From positions 127,243-191,242 of the forward strand of contig JAZQTD010000030.1 of NCBI GenBank assembly GCA_045630455.1: a DNA stretch of 64,000 nucleotides. The letters are read 5' to 3'. The notes beneath the pieces were generated by a model. It was not told the DNA's origin. It worked only from the letters and a program-made list of their open reading frames with translations, and searched no databases. Positions 3,543 through 61,075 of this stretch are shown piece by piece (positions within the stretch are counted from its first letter, which is position 1; each line of letters opens with the position of its first letter). The position numbers and the translations under genes were made by a program. Source of the stretch: Candidatus Enterousia sp. (GTDB lineage: Bacteria > Pseudomonadota > Alphaproteobacteria > Rs-D84).

Positions 3543-4106
3543 TTAATCCAGAGCTTTTACAATTCGAGCAAAGTTGGCGGATTCTTCTTCGGATGAATCT
3601 ATGTCCGAAAATACAATACCACCTGCCCCGCTAAGCCACCGGATTGCTGGCATGGTTATTTCGTGAAAGTTTTCAATACGATGATGAACTGTCTTGGTGG
3701 TGGCATCATCGGTGCGGGTTGAACCCTCGGCCTTGCGCTTATTAATGCGTTTAACCATTATATCATCCGACACATTTAGATATATGATGTGAATATCGTA
3801 TTTATCTGCATAATTTTTGACCAGCCATTGCGCCTGAATCAACGTGCGTGGAAACCCATCCAGAATTATATTGTTTGGGGTTTGTGCCAATGTATCCGCA
3901 ACCAAATCACAAACCGTATTATCAGGAATTAAGTTGCCATCCGCAATAATTTTGCAGATTTGTGAGCCGTCTGGCTGGGCACGCAGGATTGCGCCAACCT
4001 CGATATGTGTATAGTTCGGGCGCATATCGCGCAGCATACGGGAAAAAGTCCCCTTGCCCGTACCGGGGCCGCCCATCATAACAATCATTTGTTTTTTATC
4101 TGTCAT
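3543..4106 (-). CDS. adk: Adenylate kinase, short form.
   Basis: P-loop GGPGTGKGT, NMP-binding region, and overall adenylate kinase architecture; 187 aa. Confidence 0.8.
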   Translation of the reverse strand: MTDKKQMIVMMGGPGTGKGTFSRMLRDMRPNYTHIEVGAILRAQPDGSQICKIIADGNLIPDNTVCDLVADTLAQTPNNIILDGFPRTLIQAQWLVKNYADKYDIHIIYLNVSDDIMVKRINKRKAEGSTRTDDATTKTVHHRIENFHEITMPAIRWLSGAGGIVFSDIDSSEEESANFARIVKALD

Positions 4107-10942: not shown

Positions 10943-11589
10943 TTTTCGTCTCTGTTGTTGGCGACAGTGTCTATTAGTTTATATCCACGGCCGCGAATTG
11001 TTATAATGTCTATGTTAGATAATACTATATTTAATTTGCCACGCAAGCGTTTTGCAACCATTGGTGCCGCAGGTGCAATATTGCCAATTGGATGTGTTAA
11101 TGTATACAGTAACTTCTTTTCTTCGCCAGATAGCGCAAGTAAAAGTGATGTACCATCATGATTTACAAAAAATTCTTTGTCGGCGTATGCCAGGCCAATG
11201 GGCATAATGGAATTAATGCTGGTGCCGCGATTGCGCATTATGTTGTTCAAACGCAAGATCAATTCGCGCATTTGGAATGGCTTGCCTAGATAATCGTCAG
11301 CACCACTGGACAGACCATCGATTGTATTTTCTGTGCCTGTCATCGCAGTAAGCATCAGTACGGGTGTCGTATCGCCATTTTTACGTAGTTGCTGAAGCAG
11401 TGTCAGACCGTCCATACCCGTCATCATACGGTCCAGAATAATCGCGTCAACCGCCATACGTGACAGCATGTCTGTTGCAACTTCTGCGGACTGGGCGGTT
11501 AAAACGTTGAAGTTTTCGGTGCGTAACCCGCGAGCTAACGCCCCACGCAACACATCATCGTCATCAATAATAAGAATGGTTTTGTTCAT
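10939..11589 (-). CDS. OmpR-family response regulator.
   Basis: Receiver domain with IIDDDD and the phospho-acceptor Asp in ILDRMMTGMDG, plus a winged-helix C-terminus with ITIRGRGYKL. Confidence 0.85.
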   Translation of the reverse strand: MNKTILIIDDDDVLRGALARGLRTENFNVLTAQSAEVATDMLSRMAVDAIILDRMMTGMDGLTLLQQLRKNGDTTPVLMLTAMTGTENTIDGLSSGADDYLGKPFQMRELILRLNNIMRNRGTSINSIMPIGLAYADKEFFVNHDGTSLLLALSGEEKKLLYTLTHPIGNIAPAAPMVAKRLRGKLNIVLSNIDIITIRGRGYKLIDTVANNRDEK

Positions 11590-11646
11590 TTTTATGGTCT
11601 GTGTAAGTGTTTGTGGTACGTGTAAAGCCCCTACACATACCGTGGT

Positions 11647-52557: not shown

Positions 52558-54483
52558 ATGGAATTCAATCAATTGGTTATGTGGGGCGGCGCAATATTGG
52601 GCGGACTATTGTTTATCACACTAATGGTGCTGTTTTTTGTATCGCGCAAATCACAAAAAGTGATGCAGTCGCTGCTGGACATTATGCTGCAACCAGAGCG
52701 CGCTAAAATTACCGATGCAACACGCGTATTAAGCACAATTCTAAAAGACGAAATCAGCAAGATTGAATCCAGCTTTGTCACAATGCGTAATACACTAAAC
52801 GCACAAATCGCGTCTGCAAAAGAGCTGCAACACATACTAGATGAACAGAATGAAAAATTAATATCACTGGCCGATGAGGCAACCAAAAAAATATCAAATA
52901 TGTCGGGCAGATTAGACAATACTGTACACGGATTAAACGATGTGGTAGAGTCTGAAAAGTGGCACGATGTAGAAATCGCAACTGACAAATTTAGCAATAC
53001 TGTCAATCAGTTATTGAATGAAATTAACAACACAACTGAAGAAACCGCAAACCGCACCGCCCAGATACAATCACAAATTGTTTCATGGGTTGCGACCAGT
53101 GAAAGTTTATCGGAACACTTGGGGGCCGAATTCAATAAAAACACCGAACAGATGAAAAATCTGACTGGCGAATCTGAAACTATGATAGGCAAGATTTCAG
53201 AACTGGCACAGTCAACCGCAGATGGTTTCAGCAACGTTAAAAGTTCTGCAGTTAACTATGAAGAAATAATGATACGCAATGACAGACTGTTGGACGGATA
53301 TCTGGACAAGATGGATACATTTAGCAAGCAGTCCAAGAAACAATTAACTAGCCAGATGAATACACTGACCAATACAGCCAATGTTGTTGGGGGTCAGGTG
53401 CGCCTGGCTGAATCATCAATAGATAAACAAATCAAAAAATTAACCGATGCGGTTGAAAAGCTGATGGCATCCGCTACAGAAACCGAAGGGGCAGTACGTG
53501 GCATATCAGGCGAAATCGCGACACTGACCAAGCATTTTGATGGTGAAATCAAAGAATTTGCAACTGGTGTTGTATCAGAACTGAAAACCGTTTCTGGGGT
53601 TGCTAATATCACACTGGAAAACACACGTGGTGCGGCGAATGCGTTTTCAGACTCGGTCAAAGCAATGGCGACTGGCGTGCGCGAAACACTTATCGAAATG
53701 AATACAGCGCATACACAACTGTCTGGACAGTCTGAAAACCTGATTAAAATGTCAGCCGAGACAACCGCCCAGTTGCAACCGCTGTCAGAACTTATTGAAA
53801 AATATTATGCTGCCCTGCCCGATTTGAGTAAAGACTCGGTCGAGACAAGTGAAAAGCTGGAAAAGATTGTCGCAAGCCTGACAGAAAAAGTTAACCAGAT
53901 GAAGGCGGCCGTCAACGAATCTACGAATGCAGTATCTGAATCCGCTATTAAACTGGAAGATTTGGCCGGCACGTCACGCCAGCAAATGATTGATTTGATG
54001 TCTGATTATGCTAAAGCCGTGAATACAATGCAGACGCTGAACAAGCAAATGATGGTGGCACGCGCAACCGCACCAATGGATGCAATCAAGGCCGCACCTG
54101 CGGAATCTTTTGGCAAAATTAGCTCTGCTGACTTTTTAGCGCAAGCAGAAAAGATGTTTGAAAAGTTGCACGAACAGTCACAAGACCTGACCCGGGCGAC
54201 CGGTGCTGATATACCAGACGTAGTGCTGAATAAATATCATGCAGGCGACAAAACTATATTCTCTAAGTGGCTGGCTAAAATGATGAATGCAGCAGACAAA
54301 AAACAAATCCGCAGTATGATTAAGTCTGATGCAGTTTTCCGTTCCCAGGCAACACAATTCATGCGCAGTTTCGACAAAATTATGAATGGCGCACGCGAAG
54401 CGGATAATTCGGATAAACTGATGACGACACTGCTTAAAACTGATTTGGGACAGATATACACAGCACTTAAAAACAATATGTAA
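52558..54483 (+). CDS. Membrane-anchored, long alpha-helical/coiled-coil protein.
   Basis: N-terminal TM GGAILGGLLFITLMVLFFV, then about 600 aa that are Gln/Glu/Thr/Ala-rich with heptad-like periodicity; no enzymatic motif. Confidence 0.55.
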   Translation: MEFNQLVMWGGAILGGLLFITLMVLFFVSRKSQKVMQSLLDIMLQPERAKITDATRVLSTILKDEISKIESSFVTMRNTLNAQIASAKELQHILDEQNEKLISLADEATKKISNMSGRLDNTVHGLNDVVESEKWHDVEIATDKFSNTVNQLLNEINNTTEETANRTAQIQSQIVSWVATSESLSEHLGAEFNKNTEQMKNLTGESETMIGKISELAQSTADGFSNVKSSAVNYEEIMIRNDRLLDGYLDKMDTFSKQSKKQLTSQMNTLTNTANVVGGQVRLAESSIDKQIKKLTDAVEKLMASATETEGAVRGISGEIATLTKHFDGEIKEFATGVVSELKTVSGVANITLENTRGAANAFSDSVKAMATGVRETLIEMNTAHTQLSGQSENLIKMSAETTAQLQPLSELIEKYYAALPDLSKDSVETSEKLEKIVASLTEKVNQMKAAVNESTNAVSESAIKLEDLAGTSRQQMIDLMSDYAKAVNTMQTLNKQMMVARATAPMDAIKAAPAESFGKISSADFLAQAEKMFEKLHEQSQDLTRATGADIPDVVLNKYHAGDKTIFSKWLAKMMNAADKKQIRSMIKSDAVFRSQATQFMRSFDKIMNGAREADNSDKLMTTLLKTDLGQIYTALKNNM

Positions 54484-54531: not shown

Positions 54532-54560
54532 TTGATTTTTGGGGTGATTTGTGATATAAT
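54532..54560 (+). promoter_or_regulatory. Strong sigma70-type promoter (TTGATT, 17 nt, TATAAT).
   Basis: Sequence-based call; a terminator follows within about 55 nt. Confidence 0.45.
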
Positions 54561-54567
54561 ACTTTCT

Positions 54568-54621
54568 ATTGACGGGGCAGTAGTGCACCGTTTTTTTAAT
54601 CCTGCACACGCAGGATTTTTT
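54568..54621 (+). ncRNA. Short promoter-to-terminator transcript of about 54 nt, a possible leader/attenuator or small RNA.
   Basis: Predicted transcription start about 7 nt after the TATAAT box. CCUGCACACGCAGG hairpin followed by U7 ends it before the gene at 54669. Confidence 0.3.
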
Positions 54622-54623
54622 TA

Positions 54624-54647
54624 TTCAAACAACTGGGGCGACATAAT
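54624..54647 (+). repeat. Copy A of the direct repeat TTCAAACAACTGGGG(C/T)GAC(A/T)TA, at the left boundary of the glycan island.
   Basis: About 20 of 24 positions identical to copy B at 57560; the core AACAACTGGGG is shared with the intergenic hairpin at 55327. Confidence 0.6.
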
Positions 54648-54668
54648 AAAAAACAAAAGGAAAAAATT

Positions 54669-55328
54669 ATGTCTTTACCAAAATCAGAAATATCAGAAAT
54701 TCTAAGCGTGTTTAGCAATGTGCTGACCCGTTTGATTGACTGCGTTGAAAATGATGCACTCTTTCAACCACACGAACGCCGCGCCCTTCTGAACACGATG
54801 TATGAAAAAATGTGTGGTGTACAAATGGATAAAATACTGAATCAGGCGAACGCAAACCACAAACTGCAATTAAAGCGCGGTAATGCAAGCGCAAACGACG
54901 CCTATGTGGGACTGAGTGGTGAAATAACAATAGATACAGATGCAAATACATTGCGCGTACACGACGGCGAAAATGCTGGCGGCGTGGCACTGGCGCGTAC
55001 ATCAGACACAATTGGCGACTGGGTCGTTGAAAGCCAGTTACCAACCGCTGAAAACAATTATACATGGTACAGAAAATATAAATCTGGCTGGGTTGAGCAA
55101 GGCGGCATATTCGATACCCCAGGCAAAGGTTATCAAAGTATAATATTGCCAGTCGAAATGGCGGACACGGGTTTTTCCGCCCAGGTAACACGCGCCGCCG
55201 GCACATCAACCAGCGCAATTGATTGCTGGATACAATCGCCAGGCGCTTCCCTGTCAACAACGACATTGGTGTATTATGTCGCCACACAAACTGGGTTATC
55301 TTGGTTTGTTTGCGGAATAGCTAAATAA
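54669..55328 (+). CDS. Hypothetical protein with a phage-tail-fibre-like segment.
   Basis: Segment KLQLKRGNASANDAYVGLSGEITIDTDANTLRVHDGENAGG resembles the Gly-rich beta-repeats of phage fibre/spike proteins; 219 aa, normal GC content. Confidence 0.4.
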   Translation: MSLPKSEISEILSVFSNVLTRLIDCVENDALFQPHERRALLNTMYEKMCGVQMDKILNQANANHKLQLKRGNASANDAYVGLSGEITIDTDANTLRVHDGENAGGVALARTSDTIGDWVVESQLPTAENNYTWYRKYKSGWVEQGGIFDTPGKGYQSIILPVEMADTGFSAQVTRAAGTSTSAIDCWIQSPGASLSTTTLVYYVATQTGLSWFVCGIAK

Positions 55329-55353
55329 TAACTGGGGCATTGTCCCAGTTGTT
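55327..55353. other. Intergenic inverted-repeat hairpin built from the AACTGGGG core motif; likely a bidirectional terminator or protein-binding site.
   Basis: AACTGGGGCATTGTCCCAGTT; the reverse complement of the right arm reads AACAACTGGGAC. Confidence 0.5.
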
Positions 55354-56539
55354 ATTTAGAAATAATTTCATACAAGTGCTTGCAAATATCTGAACGTTCC
55401 CAAAATATATTATTATTGATTTCTTTGTTTTTGTGTTCCAATTCAAAATTGTTTTTTATATAGAATTCGATTTTATCAATGACATCATCTTTGTTATAGA
55501 AACAATTATACAACTGATTGTCTTTCGCTTTAGCAGAAAGTGCATTCTGATTGTCTCGTTCGTCCGGATATATCACATGACTATCAAATCGATAGAACAC
55601 AACTGGTATATCAAGATACATAAAATCAAATATTATGCTTGAATAGTCTGTTACGCACAAATCTGATTCTTTGATAGCTTGTGATATTTTGCTTGTAGAT
55701 ATTATATTAACATTTGTAGGCACTTGTATTTTTGCATGATTGCGCAACATCGCATGATGCATAGCAATATTAAGCTTTACATTGTTTTCTGACAGTAATT
55801 TGTTTAATTTCTCATCACACAAAAAATCGAAAATTTTATCTAAATATACACTTTGAGATTCTGGATACTTTTCTATACTCATACGCCATGTAAAGAAAAC
55901 AAATATACTTTTAGCATCATGAGGTTTTTTATACAACAAATCCCAACGAGGCAAACCACATTTAATTTGTTTGTCACCCTGCCACACCCCACGAGTATCG
56001 TATAATTCCGACTCTTTCTTTGTAGCAGATATTATATAATTATAGATATTTTCGTTATACAATTCTATAACTGATTCTTTCAAGAAAATACTGCCATGCT
56101 GTGCAAAAATGTATTTGATGTCTGGATTGTTAGCTAACATGGTACTAAATTTTTTATTTAATCCAAAGCTACCCATTACAACTTTTGCCCGGCTAATATA
56201 TTTTCGACACTTAGTAAACAATTGTTCCATACGTGTTACAACAATAATATTTTGCAAAGCATTAGAACTTTTCAACTCTTTATATAGTTTATTATGTCGT
56301 AGCAACACGTATTTAGAAGGAATGTTATTACGTTGTAGATACAAGAAGAAAGAAAACATGTCTATAGCTTCTGCCGTAGCAGAATTTAAACAGTCATAAC
56401 ATATGATTAAATCTCTTGCCCCTGTGTTATGCATAAAGAAAGGCATACTCCACCAAAACACCCTAATACCAAACAAATAATATTGCACTTGCAACTTTGA
56501 TTGATTTTTTATTTCATAACTTCGTACAAAAGGTTTCAT
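55352..56539 (-). CDS. CDP-glycerol glycerophosphotransferase family protein (TagB/TagF-like).
   Basis: C-terminal motif TDYSSIIFDFMYLDIPVVFYRFD typical of Glyphos_transf. Very AT-rich gene. Confidence 0.6.
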   Translation of the reverse strand: MKPFVRSYEIKNQSKLQVQYYLFGIRVFWWSMPFFMHNTGARDLIICYDCLNSATAEAIDMFSFFLYLQRNNIPSKYVLLRHNKLYKELKSSNALQNIIVVTRMEQLFTKCRKYISRAKVVMGSFGLNKKFSTMLANNPDIKYIFAQHGSIFLKESVIELYNENIYNYIISATKKESELYDTRGVWQGDKQIKCGLPRWDLLYKKPHDAKSIFVFFTWRMSIEKYPESQSVYLDKIFDFLCDEKLNKLLSENNVKLNIAMHHAMLRNHAKIQVPTNVNIISTSKISQAIKESDLCVTDYSSIIFDFMYLDIPVVFYRFDSHVIYPDERDNQNALSAKAKDNQLYNCFYNKDDVIDKIEFYIKNNFELEHKNKEINNNIFWERSDICKHLYEIISK

Positions 56540-56547
56540 GTTTATGC

Positions 56548-57528
56548 CTATAATTCCATCGTTGATTTTTCTGGGAACAACTTTTCTAAGATTTTATGGT
56601 TATTTTGTCTAATGTCAGCGGTACTATTTTCTGTATCATTAACACAAAACAGCGACGGCTTAACCGACATAATGTTGGATTTGGCTAAATCAGTACAGTA
56701 AACAGGAGAGTCTGAAAAAAACTTTCTATAAACTAAGTTATACAACCAACGGTTTGGGGACTTTTTATTACGTACACGCTTTAAGATATTTTTACCATGA
56801 ATATTATCATACAAATTAAATACCCAACGCTGCGCATCTTGCTCAGTTCTAAATCTTGTGTAAACAGTTTTCTCTATGTAATCTTTTAATTCCGGATGAG
56901 ATTTCGCCGCATTCATAGAAGATTTTACATACGCATCTATGTTGTGGGATGGAAAACAATGAGTATAATCGCGCCCAAACACCCGCAATATCTTTTGTGT
57001 CGCCAAGACTAGGGTTTTCATATATGCGCTTAGCAGTCGTCTGGCAATAGAGTATCTTCTTTTTTTCCCATACCATACAATTGCGCGCCCCTGTGAATCA
57101 AAAAAGAAACTTGGTTCCAGGGGTCTGAAAAAGAAACAATCATCATTAGCCAATAAAAAATACTCGGATAAGCCAGGTATGTTTGATACGCACATTTCAA
57201 TCGCATTTGAATTAAATGTCGGCAACGCATCGGCAGGAAAAATAGCTTCGTGTGGAACAATAGTAACCTTGGGATGATTGGTATTTAACCATTTGGGCAC
57301 CTGGTTAAAGCCTGTGACAATATAAATATGATTAATCCACGGAACGTTCTTTTCGGCACTGCGCAAGGAATATCTTAACTCATTATTATCGCGCCAACGA
57401 TTGTCGCCAGATATTTCTGCATTTGTCTTGGTTTCGTGTCCCGCCAATGCCAGGTAATGCTTTTTTATTTTTTGCCATTCTGGATCGTTGCCATCAACCC
57501 ACAGATAAACCAAATCTATTTTGCGCAT
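56548..57528 (-). CDS. Stealth-family hexose-1-phosphoryltransferase (capsule/glycan phosphotransferase; CR1-CR4 conserved regions present).
   Basis: CR1 DLVYLWVDGNDPEW, CR2 LRYSLRS...IYIVTGFNQVPKWL, CR3 IFPADALPTFNSNAIE, CR4 LANDDCFF. Start placed at MRKIDL; AT-rich gene. Confidence 0.7.
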   Translation of the reverse strand: MRKIDLVYLWVDGNDPEWQKIKKHYLALAGHETKTNAEISGDNRWRDNNELRYSLRSAEKNVPWINHIYIVTGFNQVPKWLNTNHPKVTIVPHEAIFPADALPTFNSNAIEMCVSNIPGLSEYFLLANDDCFFFRPLEPSFFFDSQGRAIVWYGKKRRYSIARRLLSAYMKTLVLATQKILRVFGRDYTHCFPSHNIDAYVKSSMNAAKSHPELKDYIEKTVYTRFRTEQDAQRWVFNLYDNIHGKNILKRVRNKKSPNRWLYNLVYRKFFSDSPVYCTDLAKSNIMSVKPSLFCVNDTENSTADIRQNNHKILEKLFPEKSTMEL

Positions 57529-57559
57529 ATCGCCCCCATAGCAATTTTGTTGGGTGGGG

Positions 57560-57583
57560 TTCAAACAACTGGGGTGACTTATA
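57560..57583 (+). repeat. Copy B of the direct repeat TTCAAACAACTGGGGTGACTTATA, at the right boundary of the glycan island, about 30 nt upstream of the Stealth gene start.
   Basis: See copy A. Confidence 0.6.
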
Positions 57584-57689
57584 TGAGTTATAAGATTCCA
57601 ATTATGGCGGTCTTGCGATGCGCCACACCCACCCACGATTTTGTAGGAACTTAACACGGAAAATTGGAATAAAAAAAGCCACAATAAAA

Positions 57690-57790
57690 GTGACCGGGAA
57701 GTTAAGAAAAGCTATCTACGAGTCGCCCCCGACGGTCTTTGGTGGAAACCTATTGTATAACCGGCGGCTTCCCGGTCCAAAGTACCAAGA
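57690..57790. other. Candidate structured RNA or regulatory element in a 460-nt divergent intergenic region.
   Basis: A 10-bp long-range stem GACCGGGAAG/CUUCCCGGUC encloses about 75 nt containing GUCG-CCCC-CGAC and GGU-GGAA-ACC hairpins; a further stem GGCGCAAGU/ACUUGCGCC lies downstream. Confidence 0.2.
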
Positions 57791-57987
57791 AAGGCGCAAG
57801 TGTGTCGCAACCTTTTATGGATAACAACGCAACTTGCGCCGCGTAGATTGGGCTTTCTTATGGCCCTGAACCCAATTCCCATTAAGTTCAATGTGAATCA
57901 TACAGGATAGAAATCCTTTTAGCAAGTATTTTTTAACTTGTTTTATCCACTGTGGCATTTTAGAATCAAAACAAAAGGATCTAGAAT

Positions 57988-60666: not shown

Positions 60667-60699
60667 TTATCCTCTTGAAACTTATTATAATCTAAAAAC

Positions 60700-60728
60700 T
60701 TGCAATTTCCAGTCTAAAAGACTATAAT
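60700..60728 (+). promoter_or_regulatory. Sigma70-type promoter for ssrA.
   Basis: TTGCAA, 17-nt spacer, TATAAT. Confidence 0.5.
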
Positions 60729-60734
60729 CTTAGG

Positions 60735-61075
60735 GTCGTGAAAACGATGATGATTCTGAATCCGTTGTGAAATAGTCATTTTGGACTGGGGGGCGGTACC
60801 CCACAGCTCCACCATTACTTAATATGATTTTCGGTCATATTTGGTTATGGGGCTGACATAGATTCGACAGGTGATGAAAGACAAACTGGGTGAATCCGAC
60901 GTGGTGTCGTTAAAAGCCAACTAAAAACTGAATGGCGATAGAATCGCTGCGAACGACAATGTTCGCCTTGCAATGGCTGCCTAATGTGGCGCTGAATATG
61001 GTTGGCGATTGTTGACCGTATTCGTTTAAGCAATTGCGGTGTCCGCCGGGTACATGGCACCAGAAACCCGGCATT
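60735..61075 (+). ncRNA. ssrA: tmRNA (ssrA), a permuted two-piece gene: the acceptor piece ending in CCA at 60814 comes first, then the coding piece starting GGGGCUGA at 60849.
   Basis: Acceptor 3' strand CAGCUCC-ACCA at 60804-60814 is complementary to the 5' GGGGCUG at 60849. The coding piece has the UUCGAC D-analogue and a tag reading frame GCU GCG AAC GAC AAU GUU CGC CUU GCA AUG GCU GCC UAA, encoding (A)ANDNVRLAMAA. A terminator-like hairpin lies near 61040-61070. Confidence 0.65.

Follow-up and report, generated by a model that had tools for sequence, protein, structure and literature searches.

The window analysed in this study is a 64,000-nucleotide stretch of a Candidatus Enterousia sp. 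contig (JAZQTD010000030.1), an alphaproteobacterial chromosome segment with a permuted transfer-messenger RNA (tmRNA), RNase P, and housekeeping genes. It was found that one locus of the window is the Stealth and TagF-like allele of a module that recurs throughout the clade, in which a tail-fibre-type gene faces a variable glycan operon. A short motif lies in the leader of the fibre gene and again, inside a three-way-junction RNA termed E2, in the leader of the operon. The motif differs from module to module, and its two copies very likely evolve in concert. As the best explanation, to which I give an even chance, the two transcription units would form one module in which a module-specific RNA-RNA link couples the expression of the fibre and of the glycan.

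The module in the window and in related genomes

Across 52.5-59.1 kb of the window, the open reading frames (ORFs) encode a coiled-coil protein, the fibre, the TagF-like enzyme, the Stealth protein, a lipoprotein, and rubrerythrin. The rest of the window outside the fibre-glycan locus has only housekeeping genes, such as those for SecA, DnaE, DnaK, and S1. Three ORFs of the locus, encoding 219 amino acids (aa; plus strand), 395 aa, and 326 aa (both minus strand), lie between two copies of a short direct repeat. An original prediction, made from the sequence alone, had taken them for an AT-rich island of horizontal origin with insertion scars at its ends; its gene calls were borne out by Pfam matches.

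Is this arrangement common in related bacteria? A survey with one genome per species returned 80 loci, of which 78 were analysable. Many of them bear the label Candidatus Enterousia, a member of the order Rs-D84 with genomes of about 0.75-1.0 Mb (PMC12306168). In 73 of the 78 loci, a run of two to eight convergent genes, usually of lower GC content than the locus, comes next after a homologous fibre gene, at a distance of at most about 30 bp. When 122 genes of these runs were scanned against Pfam, they proved to be overwhelmingly polysaccharide-synthesis enzymes (GT2, hexapeptide acyltransferases, GT1/4, pyruvyl transferases, GDP-mannose dehydratase, epimerases, RmlD, GT8, RgpF, GT11, and WbsX). 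At the syntenic site, which is bounded by the fibre gene and by the genes for a 154-aa lipoprotein and rubrerythrin, 14 loci have unrelated polysaccharide gene sets, and none of the 14 is empty. Other chromosomal sites have the module too; one such site lies behind a cluster of terminase-like, portal, and Bbp19 genes beside dnaB. Several genomes have two or more modules. I am highly confident of this architecture and of the two RNA structures described below. No description of the module was found in the literature.

The cluster beside dnaB is a mini-cluster found in several species (L076, 5365-8489; L092, 7163-10203; L numbers denote loci of related genomes) and ends in a fibre gene. It encodes a terminase-like protein of 280-299 aa with a T7 RNaseH-like domain only, a T7/BPP-1-type portal (PF12236), a Bbp19-like protein of 67 aa, and a 78-aa membrane/coiled-coil protein, and no capsid or tail genes adjoin it. 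It may be a remnant of a dispersed element resembling a gene transfer agent (GTA), or of a domesticated podovirus, in genomes of about 1 Mb. Some contigs with the module are filed under unrelated taxa, namely L047, L063 (under the title Bacteroides fragilis), L067 (Muribaculaceae), and P0025 (Lachnospiraceae); these labels most likely reflect binning contamination.

Concerted evolution of the two motif copies

The sequence TTCAAACAACTGGGGYGACWTA occurs exactly twice in the 64 kb, both times on the plus strand (Table 1). The two copies are identical at 20 of 22 positions and share an identical 15-nt core; no match was seen in 100 shuffles and none is expected by chance. The direct repeats starting at 54,624 and 57,560, with their 15-bp core, are thus confirmed. 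Copy 1 is located in the 5′ untranslated region (UTR) of the fibre gene, and this position is kept in relatives. Both copies were found in at least 18 modules with completely different gene content. As RNA, the motif consists of a constant part, (U)UCAAACAA(C/U), and a variable extension. The extension is CUGGGG(C/U)GAC in the window, L005, and L006; CCGGNGCAC in L002, L024, and L058; UUGGUGAC in L056; CUGGUGCAG in L015; CCGAC in L055, L069, and L078; UCAGAAAAC in L036 and L052; and CUGGUC in L032.

Over the 9 nt after AACAA, the fibre-leader copy and the E2 copy are 7.5/9 identical within a module and 4.0/9 identical between modules. In 100,000 permutations, a value as high as the observed one never arose; with eight lineage representatives, an exact test yielded p = 2.5e-5. 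Since independent drift would not keep the match within modules, the two copies very likely evolve in concert. The genome BRZ_EC__bin9 has two modules with different matched pairs, CTGGTC in L032 and TCAGAAAAC in L036, which argues against a single genome-wide factor.

A third, weaker look-alike of the motif, AAACUGGG(G)C at 55327-55353, is formed by the arms of the terminator between the two convergent units. It was rejected as a third functional copy: it is kept as a terminator, but L056 and L034, among others, show no co-variation with the motif. A comparison of L005, L006, L056, and L034 indicated that the likeness is probably coincidental. A small ORF of 23 codons after copy 2 (57584-57655) was also dismissed, being conserved in neither L006 nor L005.

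E2 and the switch leader of the glycan operon

E2 has a length of about 80-90 nt and ends about 20 nt before the start codon of the Stealth gene. A covariance model (R1) built from six species has 26 instances. In the alignment, 93.7% of the cells are paired, as against 75% in shuffles and 32-51% when the partners are slid, and 17 of the 22 pairs have compensatory changes. The helix P1 is GGGUGGG/CCCACCC and covaries to GGGCGGA/UCCGCCC and similar pairs, while P3 is a hairpin. Repeat copy 2, read as its complement ...GUCACCCCAGUUGUUUGAA, forms the 3′ arm of P2 and the strand joining P1. E2 matched no Rfam 15 family at threshold.

Which strand carries E2? It is always sense-oriented and directly 5′ of a glycosyltransferase gene, including genes that are flipped relative to the fibre gene (L040, L075, and L072). 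P2 has six pairs on the operon strand versus three on the other and contains many G-U pairs; on an alignment fitted to the operon strand, 39 G-U cells stand against 19 A-C cells. Because of the gene orientation, the longer P2, and the G-U content, E2 was assigned to the operon mRNA, where it would belong with moderate confidence. The E2 copy of the extension is also constrained by the covarying P2, which points to an RNA-level role on the operon strand.

E2 is preceded by a structured leader RNA. In an alignment of ten species, 94% of its cells are paired, with 25-27 compensatory pairs, and a long-range helix, UAAGAA/UUCUUA, is replaced by UAGACA/UGUCUA in L024 and L002. Three helices are mutually exclusive, that is, an anti-antiterminator hairpin (alignment columns 124-133/141-150), P1 (142-151/228-237), and a terminator (234-240/250-256). 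All three are 91-100% paired, and columns 143, 144, and 235 each covary with two alternative partners. Because of these alternative covarying helices, the leader has the anatomy of a terminator/antiterminator switch, and over its length of about 230 nt it is predicted to terminate transcription conditionally. The same order of switch leader and E2 was found 5′ of the glycan operons of the non-syntenic modules L022, L036, L052, L081, and L082. No gene of the NusG/RfaH type was seen nearby.

The 3′ domain of the leader aligns end-to-end with the Rfam family sRNA-Xcc1 (RF02221), an integron- and mobile-element-associated small RNA of Xanthomonas (PMC2996969). The two have in common a closing stem, two inner hairpins, a conserved AUACAA loop, and a 3′ U-rich tail. 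In contrast to sRNA-Xcc1, the fold in the window is the 3′ domain of a longer leader, is joined by a covarying long-range helix to sequence further 5′, and competes with a terminator, and its score of 38.9 bits lies below the gathering score of 53, which was reached in none of eight related loci. Ideas suggested by this match, namely an integron, an attC site, or a bridge RNA of the IS110 type, were abandoned: no integrase or transposase is nearby, the GTTRRRY core is unmatched by the motif, and the literature found shows no such link. Complementarity between the motif and this Xcc1-like RNA was likewise rejected, as only the window shares GGGGCGAC, in the same sense, and L002 and L024 do not. 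In L034, the Xcc1-like element is in tandem in the glycan leader (11328-11415 and 11562-11644), and a further copy (3591-3679) has its own terminator; the element may therefore also exist free-standing.

Table 1. Positions of the features of the fibre-glycan locus in the window, and of tRNA genes near the fibre gene in related loci
Feature	Position	Strand	Basis
Promoter-like site of the fibre gene (TTGATT, 17 nt, TATAAT, TG extension)	54532..54560	+	Consensus match, best of region, 10/12
Two intrinsic-terminator-like hairpins with U-runs, between promoter and fibre ATG	54572-54597, 54598-54623	+	Second by scan, first read from sequence
Repeat copy 1, fibre 5′ UTR, 24 nt 5′ of ATG	54624..54645	+	Constant UUCAAACAAC and module-specific extension CUGGGGCGAC
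Tail-fibre-like receptor-binding protein, 219 aa	54669..55328	+	Pfam Mtd_N, family alignment, AlphaFold2, Foldseek
Bidirectional terminator hairpin common to the convergent fibre gene and glycan operon	55330..55350	.	Scan; present in related loci
TagF/TarL-like CDP-polyol phosphotransferase, 395 aa	55352..56539	-	PF04464
Stealth-family hexose-1-phosphate transferase, 326 aa, first operon gene	56548..57528	-	Pfam CR1 and CR2, PDB sequence matches
E2, three-way-junction RNA in the operon leader	57549..57638	-	Consensus fold, covariance model
Repeat copy 2	57560..57581	+	
Structured leader RNA, about 230 nt	57666..57895	-	Ten-species alignment, covariation
Intrinsic terminator of the leader, then U7	57677-57695	-	Terminator scan
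Antiterminator, P1 of the sRNA-Xcc1-like fold	57684-57777	-	Covariation
Promoter-like site of the operon (TTGCTA, 17 nt, TATGAT)	57897..57925	-	Consensus match; conserved in ten-species alignment
tRNA gene, L005	7439-7512		
tRNA gene, L006	7420-7493		
tRNA gene, L007	7565-7638		
tRNA gene, L032	7433-7506		
tRNA gene, L034	7774-7847		
tRNA gene, L035	7928-8001		
tRNA gene, L056	7795-7868		

Base composition, allele age, and insertion scars

The GC content of the three genes was compared with that of the other 53 ORFs of the window (mean 0.428, standard deviation 0.025). The TagF-like gene, at 0.303, is the lowest of all 56 ORFs (z = -5.0), and the Stealth gene is modestly low at 0.379 (z = -2.0; 0.356 in its 3′ half and 0.402 in its 5′ half). 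The fibre gene, at 0.461, is slightly high (z = +1.3). Thus, the supposed island is compositionally heterogeneous: the claim that it is AT-rich holds strongly for the TagF-like gene and modestly for the Stealth gene, but not for the fibre gene. Since low GC is general to the glycan genes at this site in all relatives, it is a standing property of these operons.

How old is this allele? The window arrangement is found in L001 and L084, which come from the same sample, with identities of 96% for Stealth (L001), 88% for the fibre, and 98-99.5% for fragments of the TagF-like protein. In another species group, L002 and L086 have a Stealth protein of 78-79% identity and a GT8 enzyme in place of TagF, while L090 and L091, of the same group, have a Stealth protein of 78% identity together with a TagF-like enzyme of 72%. 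Over 2.6 kb, beginning at the start codon of Stealth and reaching the middle of the fibre gene, the cassettes of the window and L090 run colinear with 74% DNA identity. This divergence from the cassette of another species indicates an old allele and not a recent import. The second species group also has an extra gene for a 228-aa hexapeptide-repeat (acyltransferase-like) protein between the lipoprotein gene and the leader RNA (L002, 8930-9616; L090, 3928-4614), which is absent from the window.

Could the locus be a horizontally acquired island of 2.9 kb, with its 22-bp direct repeats as target-site duplications or as insertion scars of the att type? The repeats are indeed direct and significant and bracket three genes, one of which, the TagF-like gene, is a strong compositional outlier. 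In addition, the gene content between the repeats differs among relatives, and the module has tRNA and tmRNA genes, which are classic sites of integration, in its vicinity both in relatives and in the window. Against this stand the normal GC of the fibre gene and the 26% divergence of the cassette from its counterpart in L090, with which the low GC of the glycan genes in all relatives also argues against the recent horizontal acquisition proposed originally. No integrase, transposase, or recombinase gene was found in or beside the segment among the ORFs of 52.5-59.1 kb. The variable segment begins inside the fibre gene, after the codons for ...KSGWVE(Q/M)GG, so that copy 1 is about 500 bp outside its left edge. 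Relatives have the motif at the same two positions whatever their gene content, and copy 2 is built into an RNA structure as one of its covarying arms. The same gene block without repeats, which would have spoken for a regulatory motif, was not seen in relatives; instead, different blocks with repeats were seen, which also argues for a regulatory motif. Taken together, insertion scars are highly improbable here, and short direct repeats around AT-rich genes need not be insertion scars.

A possible RNA-RNA link between fibre and glycan expression

In the 5′ region of the fibre gene, a promoter-like site is followed by two terminator-like hairpins, repeat copy 1, a ribosome-binding site, and the start codon. 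Among the relatives, an extended -10 box, TGnTAnWAT, lies 5′ of 50 of 80 fibre genes; in 46 of the 80, the promoter is followed by at least one terminator-like hairpin, and 22 of those have two. This layout would imply conditional read-through into the fibre gene.

How could the two units be coupled? The first would be the phage-derived receptor-binding fibre gene, whose own strong promoter would be blocked by the leader terminators. The second, convergent to it, would be the hypervariable low-GC polysaccharide operon, transcribed through the switch leader and then through E2 beside the ribosome-binding site. Copy 1 would lie in the fibre mRNA leader, and copy 2, its reverse complement on the operon strand, would be one arm of E2. 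The fibre leader may mimic the 5′ arm of P2 and pair with E2 over 15-20 nt, displacing the P2 of E2 itself. Such a module-specific contact would couple fibre expression to the adjacent glycan operon. The fibre tip, in turn, may recognise, or be matched to, the glycan made next door. Because copy 2 is the reverse complement of copy 1 on the operon strand, base-pairing of the two leaders is the simplest mechanism, and the predicted cognate duplex of the window has an energy of -31.2 kcal/mol, versus -19.5 +/- 3.8 for shuffles. That direct pairing is the reason for the concerted evolution has, in my estimate, slightly less than an even chance.

Several observations weigh against this coupling. 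L035, L081, and L082 have E2 without the motif in the fibre leader, while L004, L011, and L027 have the fibre motif with no detectable E2 within the fetched DNA. The strand of E2 rests on orientation, on the better P2, and on an excess of G-U over A-C cells that is only about twofold, in an alignment fitted to that strand. The promoters and terminators are known as consensus matches only. Cross-module duplex energies are noisy (diagonal mean -31.0 kcal/mol, off-diagonal mean -25.7 kcal/mol), and the energy matrix was therefore rejected as a stand-alone test of pairing.

Alternatively, the motif may be a site for a trans-acting factor at both places, so that the leaders would be co-regulated without pairing to each other. 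The factor might be a DNA-binding regulator, a phage-type promoter, a plus-strand antiterminator loading site, an RNA-binding protein, or a small RNA. The motif may loosely resemble the promoters of single-subunit RNA polymerases. It fits with a factor that both copies have the same DNA orientation and follow closely on a terminator within a leader region, that the fibre genes look antitermination-controlled, and that phage-derived genes (portal, terminase-like, and Bbp19) accompany some modules. On the other hand, the two modules of BRZ_EC__bin9, with their different matched extensions, would need a separate factor each, and none is encoded in the modules, nor is any candidate regulator gene linked to them. 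Moreover, the extension in E2 is also held by the covarying P2, and the sequence there is the complement of copy 1. Thus, I consider a shared factor of any of these kinds rather unlikely.

The fibre protein

The 219-aa protein is a true tail-fibre-type protein. It matches the Mtd_N collar (PF18454) with 31.9 bits (cut-off 26.3) and consists of N-terminal helices, the collar, a conserved stalk (...DWVVESQLPTAENNYTWYRKYKSGWVEQGG), and a hypervariable tip of about 70-74 aa. In the family alignment, the collar and the stalk are conserved up to ...KSGWVE(Q/M)GG, and the tip beyond is essentially unalignable among members. An AlphaFold2 model has a predicted local distance difference test score of 81.7. 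In a Foldseek search, the best solved-structure matches for the stalk and tip were R2/R1 pyocin fibres (6ct8, 6cl6, and 6cxb; E = 7e-5 for R2), and Mtd (1yu0-1yu4) and viral gp53-like tail fibres (E down to 6e-8) were also matched. The phage-fibre-like character suspected for this protein is therefore upheld.

Relatives of the fibre number in the thousands, nearly all from uncultured gut and rumen Alphaproteobacteria; one of them, P0121, is 100% identical to the fibre of the window. Relatives of the fibre or of the distal module are also present on IMG/VR viral contigs. The window has no structural genes of a phage or GTA, and no sheath, tube, or baseplate genes lie near the fibre gene. Elsewhere, a fibre paralogue comes after a cluster of portal, Bbp19, and terminase-like genes. 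A diversity-generating retroelement acting on the Mtd-like fibre was ruled out, as there is no reverse transcriptase and no template repeat, and the tips differ wholesale and not adenine-specifically.

The glycan enzymes

The Stealth protein passes the Pfam cut-offs for CR1 (PF17101, residues 3-26; 42.6 bits against 27.2) and for the catalytic core CR2 (PF11380, residues 44-148; 138.2 bits against 39.4). CR4 (PF17103, residues 293-326) remains below threshold, with 14.7 bits against 27.4, and some close homologues have a precomputed CR4 match. No match to CR3 (PF17102) was found even at E<=10, where HMMER filters may hide very weak matches. Thus, of the four conserved regions that had all been called recognisable, two stand, one is sub-threshold, and one was not found. 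Among PDB sequences, the protein matches the catalytic domain of GNPTAB (GlcNAc-1-phosphotransferase) and CpsY with E of about 1e-30. A look-up of its exact sequence returned no record. The TagF-like protein matches PF04464 (Glyphos_transf) over residues 110-372 with 64.9 bits (cut-off 22.1) and TarL (8va1) weakly, and it has homologues of 66-72% identity in other fibre modules. Both assignments, Stealth and a TagF/TarL-type phosphotransferase acting on cytidine diphosphate (CDP)-polyols, agree with those made before.

The product of the two enzymes is probably a phosphodiester-linked glycan resembling teichoic acid or a capsule; the earlier suggestion of such a surface glycan is reasonable, given the enzyme assignments. 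That it would be unexpected here did not hold: more than 2000 Stealth homologues were found, the best being mostly from uncultured Alphaproteobacteria, and a variable polysaccharide cluster occupies the site in every relative. Distant Stealth homologues of 50-55% identity are single genes in housekeeping neighbourhoods of gut Alphaproteobacteria (L093, 7001-8011; L094, 4826-5815; L095, 7001-8002), and one such stand-alone gene adjoins a GT8 gene. They suggest a core, non-cassette role of Stealth in the lineage.

Association of the fibre tip with the glycan genes

Are the tip and the glycan operon exchanged together? Over all locus pairs, the fraction of operon genes in common is 44% where the tips are at least 60% identical and 2.7% otherwise. 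The tip of the window (IFDTPGKGYQS...AIDCWIQSPGASLSTTTLVYYV...) was found on at least four fibre backbones, and Stealth comes with it in every case in which the operon can be seen to its far end. The tip is accompanied by Stealth and TagF in the window, in L084 taken with L001, and in L090, and by Stealth and GT8 in L002 and L086; L087 shows only a partial GT8. In L002 and L090, the tip is 92-93% identical to that of the window and the stalk only 59%. The middle gene has been swapped among the carriers of this tip. A TagF and GT2 operon without Stealth (L092) has an unrelated tip of 29% identity. Such co-occurrence is expected of a tip that matches some Stealth-dependent feature of the glycan. 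The stand-alone distant Stealth genes described above were set aside as evidence on this point; they are not beside fibres and add nothing to the link.

The association could also result from physical linkage and shared ancestry. Among the counter-examples, L045 and L053 share 83% of their operon genes and have unrelated tips, while in L089 a fibre with a related tip (77% over the tip region) occurs in a phage-like context without glycan genes. Both cases speak against a match, and functional matching of tip and glycan seems to me possible but doubtful.

In a stronger form, the locus would be a lock and key: a domesticated fibre and the enzymes of its cognate glycan would be inherited and exchanged as one cassette, their leader RNAs would be linked by a module-specific antisense "address", and two new RNAs would control glycan expression. 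I regard this complete picture as unlikely.

Surface-glycan loci and phage receptor-binding genes are each recognised hot spots of diversity. There may thus be no functional link at all; two hypervariable loci may simply be parked in a recombination-prone region, the likeness of the motif copies being due to occasional gene conversion. It agrees with this that some locus pairs share operon genes and not tips. However, the fibre-operon arrangement is present in 73 of the 78 loci and at several unrelated chromosomal sites, and the tip stays with the distal Stealth gene even where the middle gene has been swapped. A tract of 15-22 bp is a poor substrate for gene conversion, yet the matching is kept across deep divergence. 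In addition, genomes of about 0.75-1.0 Mb (PMC12306168) are not expected to retain DNA that has no function. The absence of any link is therefore quite unlikely.

The 136-aa protein of L089 (342-752) has a window-like tip on a different N-terminus and is encoded among small genes of the same strand. L089 is possibly a phage carrying the same receptor-binding tip.

Relation to known systems

Variable O-antigen and capsule loci with read-through leaders are known, such as those with JUMPstart/ops and RfaH in Enterobacteria, the EAR RNA in the eps operon of Bacillus, and UpxY in Bacteroides. As in these loci, a low-GC, strain-variable polysaccharide gene set lies here at a fixed site between conserved flanks, behind a long conserved 5′ leader with implied terminator control. 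In contrast, the leader here is a covarying switch RNA of about 230 nt with a separate three-way junction, and a tail-fibre-type gene is always paired with the operon. Alphaproteobacteria are not known to have the RfaH/ops system, and the locus offers two candidate new RNA regulators of alphaproteobacterial polysaccharide operons. Its two convergent transcription units also provide a clear example of complementary leaders that evolve together.

The CR1, CR2, and PF04464 matches are shared with the capsule polymerases of the Stealth and TagF-like families in Gram-negative pathogens, with eukaryotic GlcNAc-1-phosphotransferase, and with mycobacterial CpsY, and they fit a phosphodiester-linked polymer. 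Unlike in Stealth/TagF capsule systems, CR3 is undetected and CR4 sub-threshold in the window, and no ABC-transporter export genes of the group-2 capsule-locus type adjoin the operon.

The fibres of R-type pyocins have swappable C-terminal tips that read lipopolysaccharide sugars. The 219-aa protein matches them in its stalk-plus-tip part, but it is much shorter, has a sequence identity of 17-21% to these fibres, and lacks sheath, tube, and baseplate genes nearby.

In Rhodobacter capsulatus, the head-spike and tail-fibre proteins of its GTA (RcGTA) bind the capsular polysaccharide of the recipient, that is, of their own species (PMC10218006). RcGTA is likewise alphaproteobacterial, pairs a phage-derived fibre with an own-species polysaccharide, and has its fibre genes apart from the main structural cluster. 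In contrast to the module, the fibre and capsule genes of RcGTA have not been described as adjacent, co-varying cassettes; the window, in turn, has no GTA structural cluster.

For gut bacteria, strain-variable surface glycans determine susceptibility to phages, recognition by the immune system, and contact between cells. If the fibre and the adjacent glycan genes are coupled in both genetics and regulation, the module would give bacteria that have lost most of their genomes a compact self/non-self system. If the lock-and-key picture is true, the locus would set who recognises whom, either directed at kin, as in GTA-like delivery, or as self-protection against the cell's own fibre-bearing particles.

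Neighbouring genes

The 641-aa protein encoded 5′ of the fibre gene (52558-54483) has one N-terminal transmembrane helix and a long coiled coil, and it reaches the threshold of no Pfam family. Its counterpart in L024 has 75% identity, and it is kept 5′ of the fibre in L084 and L085. At the equivalent position, other modules have a short, 78-aa transmembrane and coiled-coil protein. The 641-aa protein could be a partner or an anchor of the fibre.

In many syntenic relatives, a tRNA gene lies 150-550 nt 5′ of the fibre gene (Table 1), where the window has the gene for the 641-aa coiled-coil protein instead. The tmRNA gene (60696-61075) is located a few kb past the module, as it is in L006, L024, and L034. 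The module, itself no integrated element, is flanked by classic landmarks of recombination.

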